From NCBI GenBank assembly GCA_014696615.1, contig JACJQJ010000063.1, forward strand, positions 1 to 32,000: 32,000 nt of DNA. Direction: 5' to 3'. The first letter of the stretch is position 1, and each line of letters opens with the position of its first letter. The notes beneath the pieces are model-generated. The model searched no databases. It was not told where the DNA came from and saw only the letters and a program-made list of their open reading frames with translations. Shown here piece after piece: positions 2,570 to 29,479 of the stretch. The position numbers and the translations under genes are program-made. The stretch is from Nostoc linckia FACHB-104 (GTDB lineage Bacteria > Cyanobacteriota > Cyanobacteriia > Cyanobacteriales > Nostocaceae).

Positions 2570-2992
2570 ATGGAGCCATTAACTGCTGGTGCGATCGCTT
2601 TCACAACTTGGGTAGTGGGTAAAATCATTGACTGGTCAACAGACAAAACCTTCGATATAGCTTCAGAAAGGCTGATGCAACTCCTGAAGCAGAGATTGCC
2701 AGATACAGCCAAAGCCTTAACGTTGGCTAAGGAAAACGCCGTCTTACCACCAGGCGAAAGAGAAGATATTGGTGAAGCTGTTTTGGTAGAAGAAGTGAAA
2801 AAGGCAGCAGCCACAGACCCAGAAATTAAAGCAGCAGTAGAAGCTTTAGGAAATGATATCAATCAAGCTGTAGCGGAGAATCCCGAAGTAGAAAAGCGGT
2901 TAACAACTGTGATTGAAAATTGGCAAGGAATAAATATTAAAGGCGGAAAGCCAACTATCAAGAACAACACCCTTATGTTTGGCAGCAAATGA
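2570..2992 (+). CDS. Small Bell/HeLo-like candidate effector with a C-terminal motif shared with the adjacent NLR
   Basis: GAGG Shine-Dalgarno upstream. N-terminal hydrophobic helix AGAIAFTTWVVGKII, then a helical region of about 90 aa. The C-terminal ENWQGINIKGGKPTIKNNTLMFG is repeated at the N-terminus of the next protein. ATGA stop/start overlap at 2989-2992. Confidence 0.65.
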   Translation: MEPLTAGAIAFTTWVVGKIIDWSTDKTFDIASERLMQLLKQRLPDTAKALTLAKENAVLPPGEREDIGEAVLVEEVKKAAATDPEIKAAVEALGNDINQAVAENPEVEKRLTTVIENWQGINIKGGKPTIKNNTLMFGSK

Positions 2993-5424
2993 CTAGCGAA
3001 AATTGGCAAGGGATAAATATCAAAGGCGGAAAGCCGATTATCAAGAACAATACATTCATCTTTGAGCCGCTTAAACAAAATCCCCCAAATAATATTCTAT
3101 ATTACGGTTCAGATAACTTTGTTGGTAGGGAGTCTGAACTCAGCCAACTAGATGAAAAGTTAAAAAAACCAGAGATAGTAGCAATTTCGGCTGTCTCTGG
3201 GATGGGTGGAGTTGGCAAAACCGAATTAGCAGTCAGATATGCACGTCAACATGAAGCCGATTATCCTGGTGGAATTTGTTGGTTAAATGCTAGAGACTCA
3301 AATTTAGCTGCGGAGATTGTGCATTTTGCCCAGTTCCGAATGGGATTAGAAGTGCCACACGAAGTAGGAGGAAGACCACTCAATCACATACAACAAGTAG
3401 AGTGGTGTTGGCAGAATTGGCAACCACTATCGGGATTGGTATTGGTCATCTTAGATGATGTTACTGACTTAAGGAGTTGTCGAGAATTACTACCAAAGGC
3501 TAATCGCTTTCGTATTTTGATAACAACAAGGTTACTACGACTAGACACTAATTTTACTGAAATATCATTGGGTACCTTGTCATCAGAAGAAGCTTTGAAA
3601 CTTTTGAGTGGTGTTTTGGGTGATGAAGACAGACGAGTACAACGAGAACCGCAAGCTGCTCAAGAGTTATGTCGATGGTTGGGTTTTCTGCCTTTAGGGT
3701 TGGAGTTGGTAAGTAAATATTTGGGTGAAGATCCTGATTTATCTTTAGAAAAGTTGTTACAACGGTTGAAAGCACAGAAATTAGAAGAAGAAGCTATCAA
3801 CCCTTCAGAGGAACAACTACAAGCAACTGAGATGACTGCTAAACGAGGAGTTTTAGCAGCGTTTGAATTAAGCTGGAAAGAACTGAACCCAATGACACAA
3901 CGTGTAGGTCAGTTGTTGAGCTTATTTGCACTGGATGTAATTCCTTGGAAACTTGTAGAGGTTGTTACTCAACATTTATATTGGGCAAACGTAGAAGTGG
4001 ACTCTGCAAAAAAGCATTTTTACAAGCGCCACTTTATTCAAAGACTGGTAGAAAAAGAAAACTGTTATAAAATTCATCCTTTGATTCGTGAGTTTTTGCA
4101 AACAAAGTTAACAGAATCGCAGGAGCAGAATGAGCTTAAAAAGTTCTTTACCAAAGCATTCGCAGAAATTACACAGGAAATTCCTGAGTCACTAAATCGT
4201 AATTTAATTGAGTCAATTAAAGATACTATTCCCCACTTAATAGAAATCGCCAGAAATTTAAACTCTGCATTAAGTAACGAAGACTTAAGTTGGATTTTTG
4301 TAGGGTTAACTAGATTCTATGAAAGCCAAGGATTTTATAAAGATGCTCAAAACTGGTGTGAGCAGCGCTTATCAATATCTAAACAACGCCTTGGAGAAGA
4401 ACATACAGATATAGCAGACTGCTATAATAGTTTAAGCTTAGTTTGTTATTTTCAAGGCTCTTTTAAAGAAGCTGAACAATATTCTAAAGAAGCATTGAGA
4501 ATTAGACAAAAATTATTAGATAAAAATCATCTTGACCTGTCTCAAAGTTTACACAACTTAGGTACAATCTGTTATCATAAAAATTCTTATTTTGAAGCTG
4601 AATCTTTATTTAAACAAGCTCTAAAAATTAGGATTAAACATTTTATACAAAAAGGTAATTTTTCTCTTATAAACTTAGATTATTTACAGTCTTTCTTAGA
4701 TGAAGGTATAAACAGTGCAAGTTTAAATGTACAATCGTCATTTATATTAGAAACTTTTAATTTTAAAGGTTTATTTCTTAATAGAAGATACTCTATTATT
4801 GATTATTTTCTAAGTAGCTTTGATTCTGACAGTAATAATCAAGATAATTTAATATTGTATCTAGCTGAAAGTTTAAACAACTTAGCTGCAATAAATCGTT
4901 TTCATCAACGCTTAATAGATTCAGAAATATTATTAATACAATCTTTAAAACTACGAGTTTACTTTTTTAAAAATTTTCATATATCAGTAGTTGAAGCTCT
5001 TAACAATTTAGCTGGTATTTATCAAATACAAGGCTACTATGTACAAGCAGAAAACTTACTAACACAAGTATTAAAAATGAGAAGAAAATTTTTTAGGAAG
5101 GGACACCCATTTGTCCTTGAAAGTATGAATAACTTAGCTGATATCTATCAGAAACAAGGAAGACATAGAGAAGCTGAATGTCTATTTAAAAAAGCATTAG
5201 ACTTAGGGTTAAGAGAAAATCCACAAAACCAAGCTAAATTAACTTTAGCTTATATTCAAAATAACTTAGCTGTAATTTATGCTAAAGAAGAAGAATATCA
5301 AAAAGCGTATGAGCTAATAACTCAAGCGTTAGAAGTTTTTAAAAAAATTTTAGGAGAAACTCATCCTACTACGCTATCTACTTACTCAAGCTTTAATACA
5401 ATACAGCGCTTTCGTGGTGCGTGA
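2989..5424 (+). CDS. NB-ARC (STAND) NTPase with C-terminal TPR array (bacterial NLR-like)
   Basis: P-loop GMGGVGKTELA, Walker B LVLVILDDV, ILITTR, and a GLPL-like LGFLPLGLELV. Kinesin-light-chain-type TPRs follow (NSLSLVCYFQGSFKEAEQYSKEALRIRQK, LNNLADIYQKQGRHREAECLFKKAL). The N-terminal ENWQGINIKGGKPIIKNNTFIF motif precedes the NTPase domain. Confidence 0.9.
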   Translation: MTSENWQGINIKGGKPIIKNNTFIFEPLKQNPPNNILYYGSDNFVGRESELSQLDEKLKKPEIVAISAVSGMGGVGKTELAVRYARQHEADYPGGICWLNARDSNLAAEIVHFAQFRMGLEVPHEVGGRPLNHIQQVEWCWQNWQPLSGLVLVILDDVTDLRSCRELLPKANRFRILITTRLLRLDTNFTEISLGTLSSEEALKLLSGVLGDEDRRVQREPQAAQELCRWLGFLPLGLELVSKYLGEDPDLSLEKLLQRLKAQKLEEEAINPSEEQLQATEMTAKRGVLAAFELSWKELNPMTQRVGQLLSLFALDVIPWKLVEVVTQHLYWANVEVDSAKKHFYKRHFIQRLVEKENCYKIHPLIREFLQTKLTESQEQNELKKFFTKAFAEITQEIPESLNRNLIESIKDTIPHLIEIARNLNSALSNEDLSWIFVGLTRFYESQGFYKDAQNWCEQRLSISKQRLGEEHTDIADCYNSLSLVCYFQGSFKEAEQYSKEALRIRQKLLDKNHLDLSQSLHNLGTICYHKNSYFEAESLFKQALKIRIKHFIQKGNFSLINLDYLQSFLDEGINSASLNVQSSFILETFNFKGLFLNRRYSIIDYFLSSFDSDSNNQDNLILYLAESLNNLAAINRFHQRLIDSEILLIQSLKLRVYFFKNFHISVVEALNNLAGIYQIQGYYVQAENLLTQVLKMRRKFFRKGHPFVLESMNNLADIYQKQGRHREAECLFKKALDLGLRENPQNQAKLTLAYIQNNLAVIYAKEEEYQKAYELITQALEVFKKILGETHPTTLSTYSSFNTIQRFRGA

Positions 5425-5627: not shown

Positions 5628-7349
5628 TTATTGTGCCTTTAATCTTGCTTTTAAATCGCTCTCTAACTTGATTAACTCTTCCTTGTGAGATGGTGTTTTG
5701 GCTAATCTGACATAAGAGGAAAGCAAGCGCAGACGATCCGAGCGCCATTTAGGTTCTTTAAGCCCTACTAGATAAGCAAACCGTCCATATAACCACGCTG
5801 CATCTATAGATTTAGCAACATAATAATCATAAACCCCAAGTCTAGCTCTTGCTGTATTTGCTTCCCAATTTCGCAACTCTCTAGAAGGACAAGCAGATGG
5901 ATCTTTCACACATTTTGTCAAATAACTGTCAATTTGATCATAGGCTTCTGTTACAGCTACAGCTGTTAATACGGCCATACTATAACGTAGTGATTCTGCC
6001 CAAGATTTTTCTATTCCCTGACGGTTCAAGAGATCACTTAGAAACATTCCCATCTTTGCAACTTCAAGGCTGTCAACTGGGTATTCTTTTGAAAGTTTCA
6101 TAGCTTTAGCTAAACTCTGGTCAGCTTTTTTTAAGTTGTTAACTCCTCCTTCTTTGCCATAAATTACTGCTGCTGCTGCTTGTAAAAGAGCATCATCTGG
6201 AATGGATTGAGTTAAAAACTGCTTAGACGCTAATTGTATAGCTTGATTAGTTAATGAAGGTTTATACATCCCATTTTGTAAAGCATCATAAGCTGCTGCC
6301 CAAGCTTCAGGACTTTGACTTGGTTGAAAATCACGTAAATTAAGTTCTTGCCAACGTTTGTATAATTTTTGGGAGCCTTGAGGTTCTTTTTTTTGTGCCT
6401 GAGATACTCTTGACTCTAGTTTTATATACAGACTATTTAACTCAGGTTCTTCCTTAATGTCAGATTTAATTAAAAGATGTTGGCAACTATTTGGTTGCCG
6501 ACAAGCAGATCCTACAAGACCTAATACGGCTGTCACAGATGCTGCTCTATCTACAGCTGGCAAACTAGAGCGATATAAACTTGAGTTTTGCCTAACATCT
6601 TTTATCAAAGGTAAGTAAGGACGTTCTCCTATAGTTTGGTAACTAGAATTGACTTCTAAAGGATAACCACTCAAAGAACGAAATAAAACTTGAGAACCAA
6701 ACTCAAGTTTTACTAATCCTTCAGCTTGAGGATCAAAAGACATAAAGATTTGCGGCCAACTCAAGGGAGGTAATGCTTGCTGAGTTGGTAAAGCTTTGTA
6801 AGCTGTGTCAGTATTAAGTAAATTTAGAGCCTGTTCGTAAGGATGTATTGCACTGCCGGGTGGCATAGGCAAATAAGCTTGCACTAGCGCGGCAAATTCC
6901 AGATCGGCCGTTACTAACAGGTCTTGCAAGAAAGTAGTAGTTCGCAAAGCATTGCTTATGTATGTTTGCTGATCACCGTATGAAGTGGTTATAAAATTCC
7001 GATCAATAGACGTTTGGAAAACTAGGTCTTGATGTTTCTGTACTAATTCAACAGCTTCTTTGAGTTCAATAGAGCTAATTGGTACTTGCAAGCGCTTTCC
7101 TTGGAGATTTGCACTAAGATACCCATTGCTATAGGACAAATCTGAGGAGTTAAGTGGAAGCTTTGTCGTAATGTCTATTTGCAGTCCACCAATCGCTGTG
7201 CCTGGACTAGCTACTTCATCGCCTGCATACATAGAGTAAGCTATCCAGCGTACACTAAGATCACGAAGATTAGCGAGCGCTTTGTTGGAGAAAAATACTG
7301 CTACCAAGACGAAGACAGCTATCAAACGATAACTTGGAAAACGTCTCAT
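5628..7349 (-). CDS. Secreted hypothetical protein
   Basis: 573-aa ORF with an N-terminal signal-peptide-like MRRFPSYRLIAVFVLVAVFFSNKALA. I recognise no catalytic motif. Confidence 0.7.
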   Translation of the reverse strand: MRRFPSYRLIAVFVLVAVFFSNKALANLRDLSVRWIAYSMYAGDEVASPGTAIGGLQIDITTKLPLNSSDLSYSNGYLSANLQGKRLQVPISSIELKEAVELVQKHQDLVFQTSIDRNFITTSYGDQQTYISNALRTTTFLQDLLVTADLEFAALVQAYLPMPPGSAIHPYEQALNLLNTDTAYKALPTQQALPPLSWPQIFMSFDPQAEGLVKLEFGSQVLFRSLSGYPLEVNSSYQTIGERPYLPLIKDVRQNSSLYRSSLPAVDRAASVTAVLGLVGSACRQPNSCQHLLIKSDIKEEPELNSLYIKLESRVSQAQKKEPQGSQKLYKRWQELNLRDFQPSQSPEAWAAAYDALQNGMYKPSLTNQAIQLASKQFLTQSIPDDALLQAAAAVIYGKEGGVNNLKKADQSLAKAMKLSKEYPVDSLEVAKMGMFLSDLLNRQGIEKSWAESLRYSMAVLTAVAVTEAYDQIDSYLTKCVKDPSACPSRELRNWEANTARARLGVYDYYVAKSIDAAWLYGRFAYLVGLKEPKWRSDRLRLLSSYVRLAKTPSHKEELIKLESDLKARLKAQ

Positions 7350-7649
7350 TATTTAAGAATTTCCTTACTAGTGATTATACGTAAGTTTTGCACAAATTTA
7401 TCGCAGGTAAAAATGCAATGCGCCAAAGTACAAAGTGGCATATAAGTATTTTTATTTAGCCGTAGTTTTGAAGTTTTAATTTTTTGGTGGAGTTAAATTT
7501 TGTAAATCCTGTTTGATACTTAGATATATAGCTAAATCGAGAAAACTCTTTCTCTCTCTGGTGTGTGGGTTGCTTCGACAAACATAAGTTTCACGACATT
7601 TTACGGAACGGTGTTCTTCAGCTATTTTTGCGCTTCTTGTAAGGCACAT

Positions 7650-7860
7650 TTAGCAAATCAATCGCCCGTTTCTGGGACGCTTCCCCACGCCGATATACTT
7701 ACTTGTTGTACTTGGTGTCCTATGACCTGCAAGTTTCGCTACCGTGACGATATCTGCGCCAGCATCTAAATAGATTACCGATAAAAGTTCTTCTAAAATC
7801 ATAAGGTGTAAACGCATCCACATCAGCTTTCAGGTGACCGCCTTTAGGTACGACCGGGCA
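7650..7860 (-). pseudogene. Tyrosine recombinase C-terminal fragment, frameshifted
   Basis: The minus strand reads ..PVVPKGGHLKADVDAFTPYDFRRTFIGNL, then after a 1-nt frame change reads LDAGADIVTVAKLAGHRTPSTTSKY. These match the HxxR box and the catalytic Tyr box. Removing one T from the run (AAA on the + strand, 7768-7770) restores the frame. No N-terminal part is present. Confidence 0.55.
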
Positions 7861-7962
7861 ACAGCGATACGCAGTAATGGCTCTCAAAAACCTTTGAGAG
7901 TAAGGCTTTCATATCCAAAGTAAGTTAGGGCATTAAGACTGTTGCTTAATCCCGATTGTTCA

Positions 7963-10806
7963 TCAAATTCCCAACCAAGGCCGCAGATTAGCACGGCGAA
8001 CTTTCACCCCCGGCTGAGTCTTAGTCCCAATCCGAATATCATTCGATTGCCCACACTCCCAAACATAAACTAGTTCGCCATTATACTCAGCTAACGAATC
8101 TACACTCAGTCGCCACACACTATTAGCCGCATCCTTAATATGTTGCAGTTGATCATGATTAAACCCAGCAACAGCTTGACGTAATTCCTCAACCTTGAGC
8201 GATAGCACCAGCTGACCCAGTGACGACCTATCATCCCAGTTATTAATCATCTGCTGCGTCACAGATGGACTAGTGACGACCTTTTGCGCCTCATCGGTCG
8301 TCACGGTGACGACCTCTTGACGACCCAAAACACTTTCTGTTGTTGGATTTGCCTCCAGTGACGACCCATCCCCCTCATTCTGCTCCATAGGAGATAACAT
8401 CGAGATGCATTCGTTGCTCTCTTCTGTGATTTCATTAACCAAAAGGTCGTCACTTGTAAAAAATCCGTCACTACCAATACTTTCAGTCGTCACCCCTATT
8501 GTCATTTCAGTCTTCACTAGGTCGTCACTTTTTTGAATAAGGTCGTCACTAGTAGAAATCAGCAACGGGAAATTCTGCCCTGGCTTGCGGATACCAACAC
8601 AAGTAATAAACCTTCCCTTATTGGTTTTGCGCTTAATGGCATCAATCCCCAATTGCGCTTTTAGCAAATTCAGCAACGTACTAGAAAATCGTTGCTTATT
8701 CATCGTTCCTTGCCCGTTATTACTCGCCCATTGCGCGTAATTAGGATAAAGAAACTCTTCGGGATTTTGGCTAATATCACCAATACCCGTGATAGCCTTG
8801 GGGTCATAGTACAAACATTCATCAGCCCAATTCGCCAAAGGATTAGTCTCCATCAGGATTTCTTTGCTAAAAGCAGCCAGTGACGGCACTTTGCTATTTG
8901 TATCCACAAATAAATCCTGAACTTGGGCAAACGGCATTTCTAGCACCCAGGACAGCAAACCAGGCAGATAAGGCGTAAACTCCGCTATCAAGTCCCGGCG
9001 CTGATGGGGGGGAATTACATGATTAAACGGCATCGACAAGCGACGGCGAGCTGTAGCGTTAGTGTAATCCGTGCTTTGCATCGCTTCATTGGCAGCTACC
9101 ATCACCACACCATGAAATTTAAAACTGCCTGTTTGCTGTACTCCTTTCTTCTCATGTCGCAGGTCGTCATAGCCTGTAATAGCTTTAAACACACTGACAT
9201 CACCTGTGTAGCGTTCTGAATCAGTAATACAAATCAGCTTCTTGCCGTAAAAGGAAGCTGTCTCAAAGCGATTCTGTTCTAGTTGCTTGAGGGTGGTGAT
9301 AGCGTAGTTTTCTTTACCAACTAATTCCTGTACCAGTCTCAGAATTGTGCCTTTCCCAGTGCCGCCAGCGCCAATCAGCTCTAAATACCTTTGCATCTTG
9401 CCACCGCGTTCGGTAATGGTGGCGTTAATAGCAGCGCGAATTACCTCCACCCACAGATGTTGACCGTCACAAACTTCCAGTAGCCATTGCTGAATCGGGT
9501 CACAACCGACACTGCGGTCAGCCCATTTAAAGGGCAACTGTGTCAGCATTCGATAACCAGGGGCGTGGGGGTAGGTTTTCAGGGTATTGACATCCAGCAC
9601 ACAATCTTGTAAGCAGATAAAGCCGGGACAAACCTCCCAGTGGTTAATTCTTAAATCCCCCTTGAGAAGATTTAGGGTATTGGCGACAAAGCGATAGCTA
9701 AAATCTGGTCTGCGAGATCGCAATTCTGTGACGATAATATCTTGGGCTTCCTCATGGGGAATTTCACCCCAGACACCCAGCTTTTGTTCGGCTTCATACC
9801 AGTACCAAGCTTTATTGGCTACGTGCCAAGCTAGGCGATTGCGGTAATTTTCCGCGATAAATGCTGCAAAAGCTGATTCTGACAACATTTTGTTGTCAAT
9901 TTCGCTTTCGCGGAACTGACGTTCCCAAACTTCCAAGGAAACAGCCTTAGCTAACACTTTCTCGCGAAAAGCGTCGTCGCCGTTGGCTTGAATATAATCG
10001 TCCATTCCTTTCCCCTCAGCTGTACTCCAGTTGCCCGTGGCGATGTACACAGGCACTTTAAACTTAGCTAATTGGTGAGCTAGTTTTCTTTGGGCGGCAA
10101 TCACATTTTTGTTAGTAACAGCCCTATCGTCCGCGTCAAAGACAATAATCCATCCAAAATTAGCACGGGCTAGGAATTCTAGGGTATCGACTAGGTAACG
10201 TTTGCCTTGGGGGTCGTTTTTGGCTGGTGTTAAGCCCTGTTCCACACCAGGGAGGGCAACTGTGGGCAAGTTGTGAAAACAGCCGCAGATTGCCTTAAAC
10301 AGCCCTTCAGTGATCAGTAAGCAAGGATGACCGTTGATGTGATAGCAAAGGGCTTTAAGGGCTTCTAAATCCACCCAGTAGCGCGGATTGTGGGGATGAC
10401 GGGGTAGCATCGCGTCATATTCTTCTTTGGTGGCTGTGCGATACTTGGGGGCTTTTTTCTCGTCGGTGTTTTTCCAGGGCTTGTTAGGGCGGTACTGCCC
10501 AAAACCGTTGACCCCTTCTAGCCAGATGCCTGGTGATTGGGCTGTGTATCCTAAGCGCTGGGTCGCTTCTTTAATGTCCATTGAGCGACAGTTAGCAGCT
10601 ATCCATTCAGGGCATAAACCGCGTTTTGTTACACACTCTTTATAGTGTCTGTCTGAAAGTCTGTTAGCGGTCAGGGTTGCAGTTGTTGGTGTAGTATTCA
10701 CTTTTCTTACTCCAGATTTTTCAAAATCCGGGTAACTCCTTATTGCAACACGACCGCAGGACTGGTTATGATAGATATGCGATCGCGGTTCCGAAAAAGT
10801 CGCCAA
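7963..10806 (-). CDS. Replicative primase-helicase (Toprim/DUF3854-like N-terminus plus P4/D5-type SF3 NTPase)
   Basis: Toprim-like CLLITEG and IIVFDADD. Walker A LIGAGGTGKGT and Walker B LICITDSE. The C-terminal tail is acidic and low-complexity (SDDL / VVT repeats). Confidence 0.85.
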   Translation of the reverse strand: MATFSEPRSHIYHNQSCGRVAIRSYPDFEKSGVRKVNTTPTTATLTANRLSDRHYKECVTKRGLCPEWIAANCRSMDIKEATQRLGYTAQSPGIWLEGVNGFGQYRPNKPWKNTDEKKAPKYRTATKEEYDAMLPRHPHNPRYWVDLEALKALCYHINGHPCLLITEGLFKAICGCFHNLPTVALPGVEQGLTPAKNDPQGKRYLVDTLEFLARANFGWIIVFDADDRAVTNKNVIAAQRKLAHQLAKFKVPVYIATGNWSTAEGKGMDDYIQANGDDAFREKVLAKAVSLEVWERQFRESEIDNKMLSESAFAAFIAENYRNRLAWHVANKAWYWYEAEQKLGVWGEIPHEEAQDIIVTELRSRRPDFSYRFVANTLNLLKGDLRINHWEVCPGFICLQDCVLDVNTLKTYPHAPGYRMLTQLPFKWADRSVGCDPIQQWLLEVCDGQHLWVEVIRAAINATITERGGKMQRYLELIGAGGTGKGTILRLVQELVGKENYAITTLKQLEQNRFETASFYGKKLICITDSERYTGDVSVFKAITGYDDLRHEKKGVQQTGSFKFHGVVMVAANEAMQSTDYTNATARRRLSMPFNHVIPPHQRRDLIAEFTPYLPGLLSWVLEMPFAQVQDLFVDTNSKVPSLAAFSKEILMETNPLANWADECLYYDPKAITGIGDISQNPEEFLYPNYAQWASNNGQGTMNKQRFSSTLLNLLKAQLGIDAIKRKTNKGRFITCVGIRKPGQNFPLLISTSDDLIQKSDDLVKTEMTIGVTTESIGSDGFFTSDDLLVNEITEESNECISMLSPMEQNEGDGSSLEANPTTESVLGRQEVVTVTTDEAQKVVTSPSVTQQMINNWDDRSSLGQLVLSLKVEELRQAVAGFNHDQLQHIKDAANSVWRLSVDSLAEYNGELVYVWECGQSNDIRIGTKTQPGVKVRRANLRPWLGI
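8220..8549. repeat. Iteron-like array of the 9-mer GTGACGACC / GGTCGTCAC inside the 3' part of the primase-helicase gene
   Basis: Exact GTGACGACC at 8220, 8273, 8306 and 8358. Exact GGTCGTCAC at 8296, 8445, 8520 and 8541. One-mismatch copies at 8317 and 8485. A perfect 19-bp palindrome GGTCGTCACGGTGACGACC lies at 8296-8314. Confidence 0.8.
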
Positions 10807-10854
10807 ACTTTTATCGTTTCGGAGTTACCCGCGTTATGTTTAGTCAAATTACAG

Positions 10855-10892
10855 AACCCGCTTAACTTCCCGGTCGAGCGGGTTTTGTGTTT
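10855..10892 (+). terminator. Hairpin plus T-rich tract between the XRE gene and the primase gene
   Basis: aacccgct (10855-10862) pairs with agcgggtt (10877-10884), followed by ttgtgttt. Its orientation suits a + strand terminator, but both flanking genes are on the - strand, so its role is unclear. Confidence 0.25.
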
Positions 10893-11023
10893 GAGCTACA
10901 GACAAAAACATCAATTTAATTACTCGGTGGAGCGTTGCCTCCTTGCCTGAGAAAAAAGGTTAACTGCCATCCGTTCAAGTACCCGTTCAATCCGGTCTAG
11001 TCTACTGGGTTGGTCAGTGTTGA

Positions 11024-11260
11024 TCATTTGTCCTCCTTGTCTTCTTGAATTTCTTCAGGTGGAACCCAGTAAATTAGCTCACTAGGCTGAACACGGTAAT
11101 AATCACAGATTTTGTTTAGAGCTGTAACTTGTGGTATCCAATCTGGATTGTCATATAAGTTGTAAGCTGTACTAGGTGCTATACCTGTATCTTTTTGAAA
11201 GCGATAACGAGTAATGCCCAAACCATCTACAAATTGTTTGACTTTGTTCCTTATAGGCAT
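11024..11260 (-). CDS. XRE/Cro-type helix-turn-helix transcriptional regulator
   Basis: 78 aa. The sequence LGITRYRFQKDTGIAPSTAYNLYDNPDWIPQVTALNKICDYYRVQPSELI matches the HTH_XRE layout. It is divergent from the rightward operon. Confidence 0.85.
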   Translation of the reverse strand: MPIRNKVKQFVDGLGITRYRFQKDTGIAPSTAYNLYDNPDWIPQVTALNKICDYYRVQPSELIYWVPPEEIQEDKEDK

Positions 11261-11339
11261 TCATTAACAATAAACGGTTATTAATACAACAATTTATCAT
11301 TGCTAATTTCCAACCGTTAGTAAATACTAAACGATTTAT

Positions 11340-11390
11340 ATTAATGAGCGCTTGACATTAATGAACGGTTGTAGTTAATATCATAGTGTC
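11340..11390 (+). promoter_or_regulatory. Sigma70-like promoter with overlapping 17-bp periodic operator-like repeats
   Basis: TTGACA (11351-11356), a 17-nt spacer, then TTAATA (11374-11379). TTAATGAGCGCTTG (11340), TTAATGAACGGTTG (11357) and TTAAT (11374) recur with 17-bp spacing. Confidence 0.4.
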
Positions 11391-11577
11391 CGGGTTATCA
11401 ATACGTCAACAGCCCAGACACAGTGATCTAGTTATAAACACAGGTTATCTGCATTGCGTCCGCTCTATATCTGCGGTCGCGGTAATTGTACGTGTCTGCA
11501 TGACGTACTTAGGATTTATGCATCTCAATTTACGCAATTTATAAGCAATTAGCTCACTATCAAATAGAGGTGAAATA

Positions 11578-11916
11578 ATGCTGACATCCAATCAGATTAG
11601 GCGTTTACAAGCTACCGATCGATGGCTGAGAGAGATTAGAGACTCTAAAGAATTTAAAGTCTTGAATTACTGCCCAGATGTAACTTTAGGTGATGCAATT
11701 CAGGCTGTTGATGAACTATTACAGTCACATAATTACTGTAATGAAAAGCCCGCTTCTTTTACTGATAACCAGTTGCAAAAGTATTTAGAACAAAAGCCAG
11801 TAATGCAGATGAGCCGTGTCAAGACTTGGCCTGAAAAGATTAGCTCATTTATCCAATGCATCAATCGATATCTTCCAAGGTACAAGCAAGGCTATTTTAT
11901 GTGCAGATGGAGGTAA
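11578..11916 (+). CDS. Hypothetical protein
   Basis: 112-aa ORF with GAGGTG upstream of the ATG. It is the first gene of the rightward operon. Confidence 0.5.
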   Translation: MLTSNQIRRLQATDRWLREIRDSKEFKVLNYCPDVTLGDAIQAVDELLQSHNYCNEKPASFTDNQLQKYLEQKPVMQMSRVKTWPEKISSFIQCINRYLPRYKQGYFMCRWR

Positions 11917-11920
11917 GAAA

Positions 11921-12191
11921 GATGATTGATAAAAACCTTGTAGGATGCGTCACGCTTTTGACAATGAGCAAGACATACTGGATTGATGGAACGCTCTACA
12001 GATATTTAACAAGCAGTGACAGTATAAAACACACACAATACTATTTCCGTCCTTTACCGCGTCAGTCTAAAACTGCTGACTTAAAACTTAATCGTGACAA
12101 AGTACTAAGCCGTTGCTACGAAATTCCAAGCTTATATAACCAGCACACAGCAGAAATAACTAATAACTCAATACAGTTGAGTTTGTTCTAA
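11921..12191 (+). CDS. Hypothetical protein
   Basis: The ORF track gives 11856-12191. The internal ATG at 11921 is preceded by GGAGG and avoids overlap with the previous gene, so I prefer it. Confidence 0.4.
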
Positions 12192-15231: not shown

Positions 15232-16686
15232 ATGAAACAGGGGGTTTTGGAGTTAGCCCTGGCTAGTGTGTGTGGTGTGGCTGCAATCATCGGGCTTGCA
15301 ACATCACAAACACGCCAGCCCTACGATTTGACACAGATTCAGTTCTGCCCAAAGTCAATAAACGGCGTACAAAGTCAAATAAAGCTAGATAAGCGTTTTT
15401 GCAACCAGCCGCGCTTTGTCCTGGCTGAAGAATGGCGACGCTATGGGCTATATGGCAGCATGATTCCTTATAAGGGTGATGCCATTCAATGGGTGCGTGA
15501 TTTGCCCACAGACAACCCTAATCAGTTGTTGGGTGGTGCGCTTGGTGTTATGGGGCTATGGGGTATTGTCGGTTGCTTGCTTGTGCGTACACAACGCCTC
15601 AAGCGCAAGGATTATGAATTGGGAGAACTAGAAAAGACTGGCGGCTATGCAATTTGGCAGCAACACAAGCACAAACGTGAAGTTAAGCAGCATTCCACCC
15701 AGCTTTATACTGAGCGTTTAAAGGATGGGTTGTCAGGACTGGACACAGAGGAACGCAAAGCACTAGGACTGACTGATGAGGAGAACGAACGGGCTAAGGC
15801 TCGAATTCAGCTTGAGGATTTTCTAAAAGCTCGTGCTGTTAATCATTCTGTGATGGATAAGACGATTGCTGAGAATTTAAGGGACAGAGCGAAGGCGGAG
15901 CAGGAACGCAGCAAGATTGAGGGGAAGACCAAAGGCGCGATCGCAAATAGTGACAGCCATAATTTAACTGACCAGCGCCTCATCAGTGACTTAATCGAAG
16001 CGCTCAAGAATCATGAAGATGGCTGGCTGTGGAAGGTTATCGACAATCAAAAGCCCGTTTGGGTGTTAGGAGAAGCGGGAAGTGGTAAATCAACTCTAGC
16101 CGCGTCGATTGTCATGCTCAGAGAATATCTGTTTGATATGCCTTTGTATCAGCTCATAGATGCTCACGCCGGAGACAATTTAAGAAATGCATGGAAATAT
16201 TTAAGTCCTCAGTTGATAGCGCAAACAGAATCAGATATTGGACAAGCTTTTGATGATGCCCGCGAGCGTTGGTTAGACAGAATTAATAATCAACCTGATA
16301 AACAACCGCAACAGTTACTAGTTGATGAATTTACTAACTATTCTGAGTCAGATATCACCAAGGAGCCTGCGAAAAAGTTTGTTAAAGCGTCTCTTAGCGA
16401 CCCTAGAAAGGCAGAAGAAAGATTAGTTTGTATTGCCCATTTCTTCACTAATACTGCTGTTGGTGGCAGTGATGGAACTGCTAAAGGTAGAAGCAGAGGC
16501 ACTATTCAAATTGACCGCAAAACTGCTGATGGTAAAACACCTTTGAAAGTCGCAATAGTTAACGGTTTAAATAATTCAGAGGGGGACGCAGAAGTAGATA
16601 AAAAGGTGACAATTCCAAGTTGGTTGACTCCTGAAAATATTCACAAGCATTTTAACGGTCAGCCGATTGATTTTGATGATGTGTGA
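15232..16686 (+). CDS. Membrane-anchored P-loop NTPase of unknown function
   Basis: Two N-terminal hydrophobic segments, Walker A GEAGSGKST and Walker B-like QLLVDEF. The start is 3 nt after the previous stop. Confidence 0.7.
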   Translation: MKQGVLELALASVCGVAAIIGLATSQTRQPYDLTQIQFCPKSINGVQSQIKLDKRFCNQPRFVLAEEWRRYGLYGSMIPYKGDAIQWVRDLPTDNPNQLLGGALGVMGLWGIVGCLLVRTQRLKRKDYELGELEKTGGYAIWQQHKHKREVKQHSTQLYTERLKDGLSGLDTEERKALGLTDEENERAKARIQLEDFLKARAVNHSVMDKTIAENLRDRAKAEQERSKIEGKTKGAIANSDSHNLTDQRLISDLIEALKNHEDGWLWKVIDNQKPVWVLGEAGSGKSTLAASIVMLREYLFDMPLYQLIDAHAGDNLRNAWKYLSPQLIAQTESDIGQAFDDARERWLDRINNQPDKQPQQLLVDEFTNYSESDITKEPAKKFVKASLSDPRKAEERLVCIAHFFTNTAVGGSDGTAKGRSRGTIQIDRKTADGKTPLKVAIVNGLNNSEGDAEVDKKVTIPSWLTPENIHKHFNGQPIDFDDV

Positions 16687-17011: not shown

Positions 17012-19408
17012 ATGTTGCACCCAACCATGCCCCAGGACTTCTCCGGACAAAATCTTCGTGGGCGCTCCTTCAGGGGACAAAACCTTGAGGGAGCAAATTT
17101 TAGTTATGCAGATATCCGGGGTGCAGATTTTACCGGGGCGAATCTGAGAGGCGTAAGCTTCCGACACGCTAGAGCAGGACAAGAAATTCGGTGGTCTATA
17201 TGTATATTAATATCTTCATTAATTCTGGCATTACTATCGGGTATTGTTGCAGTAATTGCTGGTAGCAGTCTTTATCATATATTTGTGCTGCCTTTTACAT
17301 TTGTTGTCAATAAAAATTTCTGGTATTTTATTCGAGACTACATATTCATTATTAATTTAATAATATTAGGATTATTTAGTTTTCTATTTTTTCTGTTTAT
17401 CCGGAAAGGACTTGATATAGCTTTAAAAATTGTCACGTTTGTAGGAGCTATCGCTGGTGCAGGTATTGTAGTTATATTTGGCAATACGGCTACGGCTTTA
17501 AAGGGATTATTTAATTACTCGAATCTTTTTAAAAAAGAAGTTGAAAAAGCAGGAGTGCAAATTCCAATTCAAGATAGCATTGTCATAACTGAAGAAACTC
17601 AAAAAGCTCTACAAGTTATTCAAGAGCGTATTCAGGGGGAATTTATCGAGGCTACTAAACCATTAGCTGTAGCTTGGTTTGGATTTATAGCTTTGCTAGT
17701 GTTTGTATCTGTTGCTGGAGTTATAGTTGGAACATTTTCTTTAACCGCAGCTATAGCTGTGGCTGTCAATATAACTGAGGCTTTCACTATTGTCGCAGTT
17801 GGGATTTCCATTCCGTTTGTGATTATTGCAGTAGAAACTGAGAAAATCAACAGGATTTTACTTGACATAACAATGGGGCCTATACTGCAAGAATCTGTTA
17901 GTTACTTGGTAACTTTGAGTTCCAATGCTTGGATATTACTTGGTATTTATCTTAGTTGGCGCTCTTTATCTGGATACAAAAATTTTATTTTGATTCAGAA
18001 ATTTTCTATCGCTATTGCAACAATAGGTGGTACAAACTTTCACAGAGCTAACTTAGTAGATGCTGATTTTACTTATGCAGTGCTTAAAAACACAAATTTT
18101 ACAGCAGCTAATGTAACTCGTACATGCTGGTTAAATACTAAAAAACTAGACCTGGCTCGTGTTGATCAAACTTATCTTGACAATTCACAAGTACGGAAGT
18201 TACTGATTACAGGTGAAGGACAAGGCAAAAGTTTTGACTATCTATTTCTGCGAGGTATTTATTTGCGTGGAGTAAATTTAGCGGAAGCTAGTTTCATAGG
18301 TGCTGATTTAAGTGAAGCTAGCTTGCAGGATGCGAATTTATCCAGAGTTAAACTAAAACAGACGCAATTAGATGGAACTGACTTTACAGGTGCTTGTCTT
18401 ACCGGAGCCTACATAGAAGATTGGGGCATTACCAGTGATACCAATTTTGATGGCGTAAGGTGTGAGTACGTTTATATGCACCTACCCACCAAAGAGAATC
18501 CTGACCCTCTCCGCAAACCAGATAACAATAAAGAAGTTTTTTCAGATGGGGAGTTTGGTGATTTTATCAAGCCAATTGTTGACACACTTGACCTCTACCA
18601 TAACCAAGGTGTTGACCCGCGTGCTATTGCAATTTCCTTTAAGGAGTTAGCAGAGAATCACCCTGATGCAGAGCTTGAAATTGTAGCAATGGAGAAACGA
18701 GGTGAAGATAAGTTTTTACTTCGTGCTAAAACCGCAGCTACGGCTAATAAGTCCCAACTGAGTGCAGAATATTTTGAAATTTATAATCAACTCAAGTCAT
18801 TAGCCGAACAAGAATTAAAAGCATTGATAGCAGAAAAAGATAGCAGAATTCGTAGTTTAGAAACTATGGTCATGACGGCGCTAGAGCGTCCCAGCTTTTA
18901 TTCAAATATTCAAGTAGAAGAGGTAGGTACTATGACAAATAACCCCGGTGGTTTTTCAATTGGTGGTTCAGTTGGCGGCAACGTCAACAACGTTCAAGGT
19001 GACAACAACCGCGCAGTGCAAGGGGACAATAATCAGGCTGTGCTTGGAGACAATAATCAAGTTACACAACAAAATCAAGTGGGTGCAGATAGTTCTGAAT
19101 CGCTCACAAAAGAAGATGTAGTTAAATTACTAGCTCAACTAGAAACTTTGATTAAAGGGGCAGAAATACCAGCCGATACCAAAGAAGAAATAGTAGAAGA
19201 TTTGAGTGCTGCCAAAAAAGCCACAGACAAAGAAGAACCAAATAAGCAACGAGCATTAGACCGTTTGGGAACTGTGGCAGAAACACTTGAAAAAACTAGT
19301 AAGACTGTAGAATCCGGTCATAAAATCTGGGCAACAGCCAAGCCGATTATTATGAAAGTTGCAGCTTGGTTGGGTGCGGCAGCAGGTTCTCACCTTTTGG
19401 GATTGTAA
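17012..19408 (+). CDS. Multipass membrane protein with N-terminal and central pentapeptide repeats and a C-terminal Asn/Gly/Gln octad-repeat motif
   Basis: Pentapeptide repeats (NLRGRSFRGQNLEGANFSYADIRGADFTGANLRGVSF, then NLAEASFIGADLSEASLQDANLSRVKLKQTQLDGTDFTGACL). A hydrophobic region of about 280 aa sits between them. A coiled-coil segment follows, then NVQGDNNRAVQGDNNQAVLGDNNQV. Confidence 0.85.
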   Translation: MLHPTMPQDFSGQNLRGRSFRGQNLEGANFSYADIRGADFTGANLRGVSFRHARAGQEIRWSICILISSLILALLSGIVAVIAGSSLYHIFVLPFTFVVNKNFWYFIRDYIFIINLIILGLFSFLFFLFIRKGLDIALKIVTFVGAIAGAGIVVIFGNTATALKGLFNYSNLFKKEVEKAGVQIPIQDSIVITEETQKALQVIQERIQGEFIEATKPLAVAWFGFIALLVFVSVAGVIVGTFSLTAAIAVAVNITEAFTIVAVGISIPFVIIAVETEKINRILLDITMGPILQESVSYLVTLSSNAWILLGIYLSWRSLSGYKNFILIQKFSIAIATIGGTNFHRANLVDADFTYAVLKNTNFTAANVTRTCWLNTKKLDLARVDQTYLDNSQVRKLLITGEGQGKSFDYLFLRGIYLRGVNLAEASFIGADLSEASLQDANLSRVKLKQTQLDGTDFTGACLTGAYIEDWGITSDTNFDGVRCEYVYMHLPTKENPDPLRKPDNNKEVFSDGEFGDFIKPIVDTLDLYHNQGVDPRAIAISFKELAENHPDAELEIVAMEKRGEDKFLLRAKTAATANKSQLSAEYFEIYNQLKSLAEQELKALIAEKDSRIRSLETMVMTALERPSFYSNIQVEEVGTMTNNPGGFSIGGSVGGNVNNVQGDNNRAVQGDNNQAVLGDNNQVTQQNQVGADSSESLTKEDVVKLLAQLETLIKGAEIPADTKEEIVEDLSAAKKATDKEEPNKQRALDRLGTVAETLEKTSKTVESGHKIWATAKPIIMKVAAWLGAAAGSHLLGL

Positions 19409-19417
19409 AACTGAATT

Positions 19418-20551
19418 ATGAGTCAGTCGCCTGAGAACTTGGAACCACAACAGCCTGATGCAAATTCAACGCAGCAGGCTGATAGTTCCACATCTCAAAA
19501 TGTGGTGCAGGGGAATCAAAATCGAGTTATTCAAGGGAACGACAATAAGGCAGTTTTGGGTAATAGTAACACCGTAGTTTATGGAAACAACAACCAGATA
19601 CAGTTTGTTATTCCCAGCACTGAAAAGTTACAGCAACAGCAACATGAACGGGAAATACCTTCTTTATTACCCTATTTAGCCAACCGTAGCGAGCAGGAGT
19701 TTGAACTAGACAAGTCCATCAAAAAGCTAATAGAAAAAAATCCTCCTTATCCTCTAATCTGTATCATTCATGGTGATGAGTATCAAAGCCATGACAAGTT
19801 TTTAGAACGCTTGCATAAAGTTTCGTTACCTAAGTTTTTAGGACTAGATCCTAACCAAGACTTAATTAAAAAATATCATCTTCCCTGTTCTGCACAATTA
19901 AAGAATACGTATGACTTCTCAGATTACTTACGCAAAAATTTATCAGATAGCGTTACGGGAGATAGTTTAGCTTCTCTAGAAGAAATTAATGATTTTTTCT
20001 ATAAATGTTCTATTCCAGTCCTTGTTCATACTCATTTATTTACTGAACAATGGACAAGGCAAAGATTTGATATTTTGCAGAAGATACTGGATTTTTGGCA
20101 GGAATGGCCTGTTCTTCGGAGTAGCCAAAAAATAATAGTTTGTATATTTATTAAATACAAAACTAGGCGTAAAAAGTATACGAATAATTCGTTTAAAACA
20201 TGGTTATTCAGTTTTATAATTTACTTGTTAAAACAATATCGCCACCAGAGAGTTAATCACAAAATTTGTCGGTATATAGAAACCTTATCACTATCCAACT
20301 TTGAAAAATTTAATCGGTTGTCAGGAGTCGCTTTACCAAAGCTTATTGGAGTGAAACGAGAAGATGTTGAGAATTGGGTTCGTATGGAATATACTCAAAC
20401 CGTCATTGGAGAAGCAATGGCTGATAAACTCTTCAAAGAAATTAGAGAGTTATTTGACAAATGGGAAGAACAAAACTCATCCAATATAATTCCGATGGAT
20501 GATTTAGCTGATAACTTAATCAAACTTCTGAAATCTAATTTATCAGGTTAG
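19418..20551 (+). CDS. Adaptor-like protein: N-terminal octad-repeat motif plus a P-loop-less NTPase-like (possible inactive STAND) domain
   Basis: N-terminal VVQGNQNRVIQGNDNKAVLGNSNTVVYGNNNQIQF matches the C-terminal motif of the upstream protein. It is followed by LLPYLANRSEQEFEL and PLICIIHGDEYQSHDKFLERL with no GxxxxGK[ST]. The inactive-STAND assignment is from memory and tentative. Confidence 0.65.
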   Translation: MSQSPENLEPQQPDANSTQQADSSTSQNVVQGNQNRVIQGNDNKAVLGNSNTVVYGNNNQIQFVIPSTEKLQQQQHEREIPSLLPYLANRSEQEFELDKSIKKLIEKNPPYPLICIIHGDEYQSHDKFLERLHKVSLPKFLGLDPNQDLIKKYHLPCSAQLKNTYDFSDYLRKNLSDSVTGDSLASLEEINDFFYKCSIPVLVHTHLFTEQWTRQRFDILQKILDFWQEWPVLRSSQKIIVCIFIKYKTRRKKYTNNSFKTWLFSFIIYLLKQYRHQRVNHKICRYIETLSLSNFEKFNRLSGVALPKLIGVKREDVENWVRMEYTQTVIGEAMADKLFKEIRELFDKWEEQNSSNIIPMDDLADNLIKLLKSNLSG

Positions 20552-20562
20552 GGAGAAATTAT

Positions 20563-21576
20563 ATGAAGTTTCCGTTTTATGTAGGTGGTAGAACCCGTCA
20601 TGAAAATGAATTACCTGCAAAACTGCCAACTTCTCAGCGTTCTCAATTACTTAAACCAGAAAACTACATTCCAGATCCAGGTTTGAGGGATGCTTGCAAT
20701 GTGGCATTGTTGCTAGGACAACCTTTACTGCTGACTGGCGAACCAGGGACTGGAAAAACTCAATTTGCTTACAGTCTGGCTTGGGAACTAGGCTTTGGTA
20801 CTCCGCTAAAATTTGAAACCAAGTCCACTAGCACTGCCCGTGATTTATTCTACACTTATGATGCTCTAAAGCGGTTTCAGGATATTCAGAATCACTCTAC
20901 CTCAACCAAGCACTTGGATTACATCAATTATCAAGCTCTAGGACTAGCTATTTTACGCACTCGTGAGCCATCTGAGGTAAGTCAATATTTACCACCTGAA
21001 CTTTTACATAAGCAAAAAGTACGTTCTGTTGTACTAATTGATGAAATTGATAAAGCCCCTCGTGACTTCTGCAATGATGTCTTGAATGAGTTAGAACATA
21101 TCTATTTTCGAGTTCTAGAGTTTGGCAATGCAAAAATTGAAGCAGATCCAGAATTACAACCAATTGTGATTATTACTAGTAACTCTGAAAAAAATTTACC
21201 AGATGCCTTTTTACGTCGGTGTATTTATTATAATCTACCGTTTCCAGATGTAGAAACATTGCAGGATATTATTACTAATTATCTTGGCACTTATGTTGGT
21301 CACAGTAGCTCTTTTTTACAAATGGCTTTGGATTTATTCTATAGGTTACGCGCACCGCAAAGTGGATTAAGAAAAAAACCTGCAACTGCTGAGTTATTAA
21401 GTTGGCTAATAACTTTGCAAAAATTCACTTGCGATACAGATAATCCTTTAACTCAACCAGACAATGTCCTTTGTACTCTTAGTACCCTAATTAAAACTGC
21501 TGAAGACCAACAAAAAGCCACTAAAATTGTAGAACAATGGATAAAGGAACAGACAAAGGCATCCCGGATTGGTTAA
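20563..21576 (+). CDS. MoxR-type AAA+ ATPase
   Basis: Walker A LLLTGEPGTGKTQFA, Walker B VVLIDEIDKAPRDFCNDVLNELE and sensor region IVIITSNSEKNLPDAFLRRC. GGGAGA Shine-Dalgarno upstream. Confidence 0.9.
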   Translation: MKFPFYVGGRTRHENELPAKLPTSQRSQLLKPENYIPDPGLRDACNVALLLGQPLLLTGEPGTGKTQFAYSLAWELGFGTPLKFETKSTSTARDLFYTYDALKRFQDIQNHSTSTKHLDYINYQALGLAILRTREPSEVSQYLPPELLHKQKVRSVVLIDEIDKAPRDFCNDVLNELEHIYFRVLEFGNAKIEADPELQPIVIITSNSEKNLPDAFLRRCIYYNLPFPDVETLQDIITNYLGTYVGHSSSFLQMALDLFYRLRAPQSGLRKKPATAELLSWLITLQKFTCDTDNPLTQPDNVLCTLSTLIKTAEDQQKATKIVEQWIKEQTKASRIG

Positions 21577-28900: not shown

Positions 28901-29162
28901 ATTCTGGTTTGTATAAATTAATGGCCTCTTTAGTTCGCGGATCTTTAATCTCGTCATTCTCTGCGTCTTGCTTGGCTTGTTCTTTAATTAGAGATTCACA
29001 AGATTGCTGAGTAGTTAATTTAGGAGTCTGAGGATAACTCGGAACTGCTGAGGCGAAAAGCACTAACCACAGAGTTAGCGTAAACAGAAGTGCGTATAAT
29101 CGTTGCTGGTTTAAACTATTTTTTGCAGACTTTAATTTTTTAATATATTGAACTAGTTTCAT
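25929..29162 (-). CDS. Membrane-anchored NACHT NTPase with HEAT/ARM-like repeats and an AT-rich low-complexity tail
   Basis: Walker A VKGSPGSGKTMLLKYIA and Walker B LLLLDGFDEV. Two N-terminal hydrophobic segments (LYALLFTLTLWLVLFASAV, GWIGLLILLIGTAFGTAFG) flank about 100 aa. I prefer the ATG at 29162. The ORF track start at 29180 is a TTG. Confidence 0.9.
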   Translation of the reverse strand: MKLVQYIKKLKSAKNSLNQQRLYALLFTLTLWLVLFASAVPSYPQTPKLTTQQSCESLIKEQAKQDAENDEIKDPRTKEAINLYKPECQNLKPFEIGKIYDKAFQEQREAKKKDLRELFKPENGWIGLLILLIGTAFGTAFGNTLINLFSSIFNTVGNQIYGRFSGFQFMRHSALKHYKEELKEKHENLKISFRPNRPLKLKDIYVPLKVTGTKDTDLIDAFQAVAKYRRLMVKGSPGSGKTMLLKYIALCYAEGRWADLFKKFKCVPVLVELHRFSNKELTVEQQLVEAFARDGFPNAQSFVSQSLDKNKLLLLLDGFDEVSSNERQKVVDLINDFLDTHKDCPVIITCRTAVYRGEFNDFIDQTLEVVEFNDQQIREFLVPWKPDMPAEKSVEQLIQTLHDRPRIMELARNPLMLTIIAYLYADTPAVLPHSRAEFYRKATDILLEQWHQERNLFQARDKKLILQHLALFFQDNANQQGQDRRSVDSITVESQVTGILPSLNLQPDCTRSILSEIVERNGLLLKIDGGERYQFAHLTLQEFFAASQLRDNADGLTSRFKADPDTWRETLKLWCGIASDSTNLITEVRTVDSVVAFECLADVQACDSTLALEIINSFKSRLGEDGNEDIVNHAFAAVAADDRRRTSVFSFLKETLENTSETDARRKAAVNALSLTNLSSAAELLTQQYANLDNIEFRLNLDQALIRMGDIAVPKIEEVVTADSIHQVMDALVGIPTPSALQALVNWLWDKDENRALRAALLLASLIKQKKYRAMLNACQLPKDYSRLIGSFDWIVKPYRAEPVLNTILLQISNIISKKLIDPVEVIDQLYLRDFDLKLIIPICFIQALENRDFKKSLGVRHKEWESYIQTLCGQNVLGFLISNISPLYIIYIVEQQSLEYLRVRSLKDKYTVNDLYEFYMNYKFRKKEKNSNSKDFFQKDFFQKINEQIDSLFDSFFIFLIGVELYDKLLDFSWNLSKYLIEISKIIINLYFRSIGRVDVVRLETEFINRMKSVCVVESINRDESEDRLKIQKYLKGMIEKRIVEVVEEGREKLITKNGWEGKVIINKKLANPPKK

Positions 29163-29479
29163 AAATTTGATGAATAGCAACTACATTACCCGATTATTTC
29201 TGCCACAACTTGGCTCATCTTCAGCCCCCGCCAAGCGCAAGCTGTATGGAATCGTCCGTGATACTAATGTGCATAGCTAGGGCGGCTTTTGTATCTTTTT
29301 AAAGATTTTATAGTTAATTACGCTTAAACAAAATTACAAATGTCTAAAATTTATTTAAACAATTTTGAGCGACAAAGTTCTGGAGTGATTACCTTGGACG
29401 ATATCGGGAATCGTTAATCGCTATATCCATTAAGAGCGCCAGGAGTTGCGATCGCGCTTTTGATGGGATTTTAATTCAC

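Follow-up and report, generated by a model that had tools for sequence, protein, structure and literature searches.

The window analyzed in this article is a 32,000-nucleotide stretch of plasmid DNA from the cyanobacterium Nostoc linckia FACHB-104 (contig JACJQJ010000063.1 of assembly GCA_014696615.1, positions 1 to 32,000 of the forward strand). It contains the gene rep, which encodes a primase-helicase initiator (Rep), and in the 3′ part of this gene an array of a short DNA word that recurs on both strands. The gene and the domains that concern the array are located as follows:

7963 to 10806, minus strand: rep, encoding the 947-aa primase-helicase initiator; longest open reading frame (ORF), TTG start
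8563 to 8874, minus strand: winged-helix coding region, the proposed reader of the words (residues 645–748; delimited by the AlphaFold2 (AF2) model, the alignment to PriRep, and diagnostic residues)
8272 to 8535, minus strand: predicted disordered linker that carries the array (residues 758–845; low predicted local distance difference test (pLDDT) score)
7966 to 8271, minus strand: C-terminal domain of Rep (residues 846–947; four helices and a small β-barrel, pLDDT 95.5)

Pfam models match Rep at residues 163–278 (DUF3854), 314–446 (D5_N), and 477–588 (DUF5906, a superfamily 3 (SF3) helicase), with a weak match of Pox_D5 at 655–732. The only NCBIfam match is TIGR01613 ("P4 primase C-term"), which is borderline with 105.4 bits against a cut-off of 108.7; the initial annotation, made from the DNA letters alone, had called the protein a P4-family primase-helicase, and this label is correct. 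The AF2 model was built on 69 homologs and has a mean pLDDT of 82.8. Herein, residues 45–757 and 846–947 are confident, and residues 758–845 score 26–32. The winged helix is modeled with helices 686–696 and 704–718 and a β-hairpin at 725–739, and this region aligns to the C-terminal domain of PriRep5, the primase-helicase of a Staphylococcus aureus pathogenicity island (SaPI). In a Foldseek search with the whole Rep model, the PriRep of SaPI5 (7OLA), which is also the nearest solved structure by sequence, ranks first (E 1e-18, target-normalised TM-score 0.73 over ~440 residues) and is followed by the D5-type primase-helicases of African swine fever virus and poxviruses. Pfam, AF2, and Foldseek thus describe an SF3 helicase followed by a winged helix, encoded in cis with the array. 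The C-terminal domain, which is missing or replaced in some clades (Allocoleopsis, loci L037 and L046), gave no significant match in a fold search against the PDB, the best hit having an E value of 0.02 with SH3/Tudor/PWWP-like hints only.

The closest Reps are encoded on Nostocales plasmids of 35–39 kb, namely those of Tolypothrix PCC 7910 (97% identity), Calothrix brevissima NIES-22 (96%), and Nostoc ATCC 53789 (83%), and further relatives form a graded series down to 34% identity. The plasmid backbone is mosaic, with about one-third of the window aligning to any single plasmid. At the 5′ end of the gene, the longest ORF begins with the TTG at 10806 and includes a HIP1 site (GCGATCGC) close to this start, in the region 10700–10806. 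Annotated homologs of Rep begin ~35 codons further in (MNTT...), residues 1–43 are of low confidence in the model, and the true start of rep is probably located near 10701.

The array is organized in two opposed sets of the 9-mer GTGACGACC that flank a central spacer:

8445 to 8549, minus strand: proximal iteron set; gene-sense words at 8541, 8520, and 8445 (exact), 8485 (one mismatch), and 8509 (two mismatches)
8367 to 8444, no strand: central spacer between the opposed sets, 78–80 bp
8220 to 8366, plus strand: distal iteron set, antisense to the gene; words at 8358, 8306, 8273, and 8220 (exact) and 8317 (one mismatch)
8220, 8273, 8306, 8358 (plus strand) and 8296, 8445, 8520, 8541 (minus strand): exact copies of GTGACGACC

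All eight exact copies of GTGACGACC or its complement that are present in the 32 kb window lie inside 8220–8549. The expected count is 0.05 per window, and eight copies were reached in none of 100 dinucleotide-preserving shuffles of the window. Copies with one mismatch occur in the array at 8317 (TTGACGACC) and 8485, with only two others elsewhere in the window, and copies with two mismatches at 8467 and 8509. Allowing up to two mismatches, 12 copies are found in 8150–8620, compared with ~1.5 per kb in the rest of the window. The copies of the right-hand cluster (8445–8549) are all on the same strand, and those of the left-hand cluster (8220–8366) on the opposite one, except for the inverted copy at 8296, which together with the copy at 8306 forms the perfect 19-bp palindrome GGTCGTCAC-G-GTGACGACC (8296–8314). 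The proximal set also holds a conserved degenerate copy at ~8462–8470, and its first copy starts 37 nt past the codon of R740, the residue at which the wing of the winged helix ends. In the distal set, the word columns are invariant in eight relatives, and the flanking columns are divergent. The plasmid of Tolypothrix sp. PCC 7910, the closest relative, is complete at 38.9 kb and again contains eight exact copies, all in the array and none outside it.

The array covers Rep residues 753–863 and sits in a segment of the initiator ORF under weak protein constraint: pLDDT is below 50 at 758–845, and identity to relatives is 0.24–0.32 in the linker, compared with 0.6–0.9 in the flanking domains. 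Since the low-scoring stretch and the positions of the copies largely coincide, the array essentially equals the coding sequence of the predicted disordered tether. Read in the frame of rep, the same word is translated in six frame/strand classes, giving SDDL (8541, 8520, and 8445), G/RSSL (8358 and 8220), VVT (8306 and 8273), and VTT (8296). The initial annotation had reported eight exact and at least two one-mismatch copies within 330 bp, a left and a right cluster of mostly opposed orientation, the palindrome at 8296–8314, and these translations (SSL being given as RSSL/GSSL). Each of these points was borne out, with 8296 being the sole exception to the opposed orientation. The 9-mer is also not a common one, considering that neither the window nor the complete related plasmid has an exact copy beyond the array.

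For a comparison of codon positions, the last 1.5 kb of rep was aligned from eight members of the clade, which share 83–97% protein identity. The word columns have a mean pairwise identity of 0.962 (0.975, 0.949, and 0.963 at codon positions 1, 2, and 3), and 82 out of 90 are invariant. The other linker columns have a mean pairwise identity of 0.739 (0.72, 0.75, and 0.74 by codon position), with 124 out of 240 being invariant. The flanking domains exhibit the usual coding pattern of 0.94, 0.97, and 0.74. Hence, the linker, which shows no codon periodicity, evolves at about the rate of the third codon positions of the flanking domains. When blocks of 9 nt were placed at random 10,000 times, no placement matched the observed conservation of the words. 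That selection acts on the DNA rather than on the protein had been suggested in the initial annotation from the recurrence of the word regardless of frame and strand, and the alignment supports this reading, as the words are kept at all three codon positions while the linker around them drifts at the synonymous rate. Homologs do not keep the peptides by means of other codons either; instead, other clades switch the whole set of words, and the peptides encoded are unrelated. The words are very probably protein-binding sites under DNA-level selection.

The distribution of such arrays was determined by scanning one genome per species with an alignment of 12 Reps, which yielded 54 more loci. Each locus of ~10 kb was searched without bias for its most clustered 8-mer; 65 loci were tabulated, and 37 were analyzed in detail. 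The family itself comprises at least 474 protein clusters at E ≤ 1e-20. In 43 of the 65 loci (about two-thirds, by a hand count), the top 8-mer cluster is located in the 3′ part of rep, and it is tied in several others. With few exceptions, the sense copies precede the spacer and the antisense copies follow it, ten loci being perfectly partitioned. In the 37 detailed loci, the copies run toward the spacer from both sides (>>>>> spacer <<<<<) and span three to six frame/strand classes. The word itself varies by clade, with GTGACGAC, GTGCTGAC, TGTGATGG, TGACGGGT, GGTGACGG, GGTGAAGG, GTGTAGG/GTGTAGAC, and CTGACAAC being found among others. From one clade to another, all copies, whatever their strand and frame, have changed jointly to another word, and the encoded peptides (SDDL, DADL, CDGCDG, or ECREC) are unrelated among clades. 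Even at a conserved protein position the codons follow the word of the clade: WDDRSSLG of clade A uses AGGTCGTCACTG, and WENKSALG of clade B uses AAGTCAGCACTG.

The position of the array is likewise conserved, in about 60 related loci of cyanobacteria. Its first copy lies a median of 43 nt past the codon aligned to R740, and the stop codon lies at +543 to +897. Since the former distance is steady and the latter is variable, it is the winged helix, rather than the gene end, to which the array is anchored. The spacer of the 37 loci has a median length of 90 bp (the range for the family being 80–130 bp) and an AT content of 0.62, compared with 0.53 in rep and 0.49–0.53 in the arrays. Distances between neighboring copies peak at 9–12, 21–22, 33, 40–42, and 53 bp, which roughly corresponds to helical repeats. 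At the center of the spacer, different clades have kept a box, ACCAATRCTACTTG, that is read in two frames (NQxYLM or TNTTC) and hence also is an element at the DNA level. It could be a melting or priming site or the site of a host factor. A degenerate copy of this box is found in the window and full copies in relatives:

~8399 to 8418: degenerate copy of the central box in the window; copies in relatives at L002 6282, L005 6258, L024 6311, L032 6626, and L066 6563

Some loci deviate in other respects. In the clade of Calothrix PCC 6303 (L009 6318–6590, also L010 and L054), 45-bp tandem repeats that encode 15-aa units such as REENSREGNxxSPxS lie in the linker between the word sets; the linker hence expands by tandem duplication. 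In a Rivularia sp. metagenome-assembled chromosome (OZ245322.1, L055 ~6158–6417), the rep frame is broken, with a longest ORF of 374 aa, and nine copies of an own word, AGTCCTCA, are still present at the usual place. The broken frame could reflect recent integration or decay or, alternatively, assembly indels. A search for mini-plasmids carrying only rep among short contigs found terminal overlap in 0 of 10, and contig ends seem to cut the genes of the short proteins P0032 and P0038.

The word co-varies with one domain of Rep. Reps associated with GTGACGAC, including distant ones (52–57% identity), were compared with those associated with GTGCTGAC (68–72%), giving 15 diagnostic residues. Eight of them (645, 662, 692, 698, 701, 726, 729, and 736) are located in the winged helix, which makes up 11% of the protein, and two more are encoded by the words themselves. 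In a second comparison, pairs of Reps were matched at a helicase identity of 0.65–0.75 and evaluated by the Mann–Whitney test; such pairs are not phylogenetically independent. The winged helices of same-word pairs are 0.71 identical, compared with 0.54 for different-word pairs, at a p value of 7e-7 that is overstated by this non-independence. The corresponding values are 0.68 and 0.70 for the N terminus (p 0.38), 0.50 and 0.57 for D5_N (p 0.99), and 0.40 and 0.46 for the C-terminal domain (p 0.82). Among the domains compared, the winged helix alone tracks the word, and both the direction and the domain specificity of this effect are clear. From this co-variation, we infer that Rep is the protein that binds the words.

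With a probability of roughly 0.7, the array is the vegetative origin of replication (oriV) of the plasmid, located inside the reading frame of its own initiator; the initial annotation had proposed the same, and the comparative results support it. The mechanism proposed for it draws on analogy and on comparative evidence. Herein, the winged helix (aa ~645–748) would read the 9-bp word (A)GTGACGACC(T), of which four to six copies face inward on either side of a spacer of ~80 bp. Rep bound to both sets would form two oppositely oriented hexamers, head to head, whereupon the spacer would be melted and one SF3 ring loaded per strand. The N-terminal DUF3854 domain, which is Toprim-like, would act in priming, and bidirectional theta replication would follow. 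Translation of the array DNA would give a disordered tether that connects the winged helix with the C-terminal domain, the peptide being a by-product of the words. The strongest argument for an origin over a control site is that the words occur nowhere else on the plasmid, so that a site-specific initiator has nowhere else to load.

Individual features of such an arrangement are known from other systems. The α protein of P4 binds octamer iterons (TGTTCACC) in both orientations via its C-terminal winged helix, and the iterons of P4 lie in two regions, ori and crr, that are separate from each other and outside the α reading frame. Rep is connected to this system by its near-threshold match to the C-terminal model of P4-family primases, and differs from it in the primase domain. 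In SaPIs, the winged helix of Rep recognizes iterons of 5–6 bp, Rep loads itself without a loader, and the ori consists of 6–12 iterons directly downstream of rep in two opposed sets around a central AT-rich region (PMC9371898). In both initiators, a self-loading SF3 helicase would be accompanied by a D5_N-like domain and followed C-terminally by a winged helix that would hold the word specificity, and in both systems the opposed sets come directly after the part of the gene that encodes the helicase and winged helix. However, the SaPI iterons of 5–6 bp lie past the stop codon, whereas the words described here have 8–9 bp and are translated as a linker that precedes an extra 100-aa domain. Rep also has a different primase module (DUF3854, Toprim-like), and its identity to SaPI5 PriRep is ~17%. 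The central region between the word sets is only weakly AT-enriched.

That an origin can lie within the gene of its initiator is well established. Lambdoid phages provide the case of a translated origin, and in them the iteron sequence and the DNA-binding domain differ together. The lambdoid ori is located in the middle of gene O, where added iterons add residues to the O protein (PMC7466680). The plasmid array, as a putative origin, resembles it in that the iterons are translated within the initiator's own gene. The O protein, however, is not a helicase and recruits the host DnaB via P, and its 19-bp direct iterons are followed by an AT-rich tract instead of being arranged as opposed sets. 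In N15, the initiation site lies in the 3′ part of repA, and in repABC plasmids oriV is located within repC. Replication of N15 starts bidirectionally within repA (PMC2847241). The RepA proteins of N15, PY54, and phiKO2, whose genes contain an internal origin, are P4 α-like and, like the present Rep, multidomain primase-helicases; they belong to enterobacterial linear phage-plasmids, and their N-terminal primase type is unlike that of this Rep. In classical iteron plasmids (pSC101, R6K, RK2, and F type), direct repeats of 17–22 bp are bound by a Rep dimer of the winged-helix type that lacks helicase activity, and the origin also has DnaA boxes and, adjoining, an AT-rich unwinding element. An assignment to this type was rejected given the opposed words of 9 bp, the helicase nature of Rep, and a search for DnaA boxes that found none near the array.

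Among cyanobacterial plasmids, the minimal replicon of pSYSA of Synechocystis 6803 consists of rep and its upstream region (PMC9978351). Its initiator CyRepA1 (Slr7037) is likewise encoded on a cyanobacterial plasmid and shares with Rep the N-terminal DUF3854. Membership of Rep in the CyRepA1 family was considered and rejected: only the N-terminal ~250 aa align (BLASTP, aa 49–292 of Rep, that is, DUF3854) at 23% identity, and the NCBIfam search of Rep gave no match to a CyRepA1 model. The 3′ part of slr7037 contains no comparable array, and iterons are not mentioned in the CyRepA literature searched. The best reading by analogy is a SaPI/P4/N15-type initiator with a cognate iteron origin that is translated as in lambda O; this is not a new principle.

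Several observations weigh against an origin at this site. The spacer of the window has an AT content of 0.577, which is below the window mean of 0.598; with a value that is not high in absolute terms, it lacks an evident DNA-unwinding element. The family mean is 0.62, compared with 0.53 in rep. The cumulative GC skew has no usable minimum in the window or in the complete related plasmid, and the literature searched links no iterons to DUF3854/P4-type cyanobacterial Reps. Near-same words on co-resident plasmids are awkward, being unexpected if the words alone set incompatibility or replicon identity: pMIC7113.07 (L007) and pMIC7113.06 (L008) of Allocoleopsis franciscana PCC 7113 carry the near-identical words TGTGATGG/TGTGACGG, and the co-resident family Reps of Dulcicalothrix desertica PCC 7102 (L040/L042) are associated with nearly the same word, AGTGTAGA. 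In pSYSA, which is distantly related, the published model places an RNA-primed initiation in the region upstream of rep (PMC9978351), and the centromere site of N15 also lies inside repA, so that sites within rep need not be origins (PMC2847241). Finally, a divergent promoter region with an AT content of 0.73–0.74 and with inverted repeats (11226–11400) lies upstream of rep and offers an alternative site for the origin. It adjoins a helix-turn-helix (HTH) gene:

11024 to 11260, minus strand: Cro/C1-type HTH gene upstream of rep (Pfam HTH_26, E 8e-10)
11260–11289/11336–11365 and 11311–11325/11357–11371: inverted repeats near the HTH gene, with promoter-like sites

The HTH protein is probably a regulator of the rep operon, and the adjacent AT-rich divergent region probably the control region of this operon.

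If initiation took place elsewhere, for example in this upstream region, the Rep-bound array would be a control element that acts in copy control by titration or handcuffing or in autoregulation, with transcription of rep being blocked. Iteron arrays outside origins are well known, as in crr of P4 and the inc arrays of P1 and F. The inverted repeats of 11226–11400 are compatible with such a role, and so are the upstream priming in the pSYSA model (PMC9978351) and a window spacer without a clear unwinding element. This explanation is nevertheless considered unlikely. With no other copy of the word in the window or the complete relative, the real origin would have no site, and the upstream region is without an array. 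The opposed two-sided layout with a spacer of fixed size and a conserved central box fits an origin better than a titration array, and the pSYSA Rep has only its N-terminal domain in common with this Rep. It is less probable still that the words are recognized not by Rep but by a different protein of the plasmid, for example the small HTH protein or a ParB/ParG-like adaptor, with the array serving as a partition (centromere) site or as an operator. Centromeres are arrays of short repeats, the one of N15 resides inside repA (PMC2847241), and a weak ParA-like ORF is present at 852–1631, with ParA also being annotated on a related plasmid. Yet it is Rep's own winged helix with which the word co-varies, and the array stays with rep across loci whose neighboring genes differ. 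Moreover, Allocoleopsis has a separate pair of 23-bp palindromes near a ParG-like gene, which is the likelier partition or operator site. The copies of this palindrome of ~23 bp (GGGAGAACTATTTCC...; L007 3694–3716 and 7013–7036) flank rep, the adjoining gene is annotated ParG, and they probably serve, separately from the array, in partition or as operators.

Selection could also act on a long hairpin that is formed by pairing of the two arms in the rep mRNA or in single-stranded DNA, be it a regulatory RNA or a single-strand initiation signal. The sense RNA of 8205–8565 does fold at -132.5 kcal/mol (z = -6.5) with nested arms; such stability, however, follows automatically from opposed arrays, and an Rfam search of 7300–12000 gave no match. 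Pairing requires pairwise complementarity only, whereas the copies within one arm are identical and change jointly between clades. The hairpin, which leaves this identity unexplained, was rejected as very improbable. The least credible alternative is a repeat at the protein level, in which a disordered tail would carry a short, acidic motif like SDDL and the DNA repeats would be a side effect. The sense copies do give similar acidic peptides in two clades (SDDL and DADL), but complementary copies encode unrelated peptides, and other clades have CDGCDG or ECREC. This explanation is refuted by the reading of one word in six frame/strand classes and by third codon positions that are conserved as much as the first and second.

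The rest of the window is rich in genes for STAND-type NTPases and repeat proteins, which are located at 2989–5424, 15232–16686, 19418–24335, 25929–29180, and 29661–31970. They comprise NB-ARC+TPR, NACHT, iSTAND, and AAA types and two WD40 proteins. The protein of ORF 21537–24335 ends in WD40 repeats, and within this ORF a 15-bp unit containing CTAACCAACCAGG occurs twelve times in tandem at 21980–22153. A periodicity of 126 bp at 29808–31185 corresponds to the WD40 repeat. A pentapeptide-repeat protein is encoded at 17012–19408.

A translated origin is a layout known from phages that is not yet described for this cyanobacterial plasmid family. Its array region is a natural sequence with two roles, in which islands of binding sites are frozen within coding DNA that is free as protein, and gene annotators as well as dN/dS analyses would misread such a stretch. 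Cyanobacterial plasmid origins are almost unmapped, and there are few vectors for filamentous cyanobacteria. If the array is the origin, a fragment of ~350 bp together with Rep would be a portable replicon. Binding specificity, for example for GTGACGACC compared with GTGCTGACT, would then follow the winged helix, and the code of word and winged helix would predict cognate replicons and thereby sets of compatible vectors for Nostoc, Anabaena, and Calothrix. As a tentative and rather doubtful extension to the whole of this large family of at least 474 clusters, its plasmids might all replicate from an origin in the disordered linker of Rep, with the word and the winged helix co-evolving as lock and key. 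Transcription and translation of rep would in this case cross the initiation complex, which could couple the synthesis of Rep to origin firing; a roadblock by Rep that yields a C-terminally truncated Rep is one possible form of this coupling. Lock-and-key evolution would also generate many compatible replicon types, which would help to explain how ten or more plasmids are found in Nostocales.

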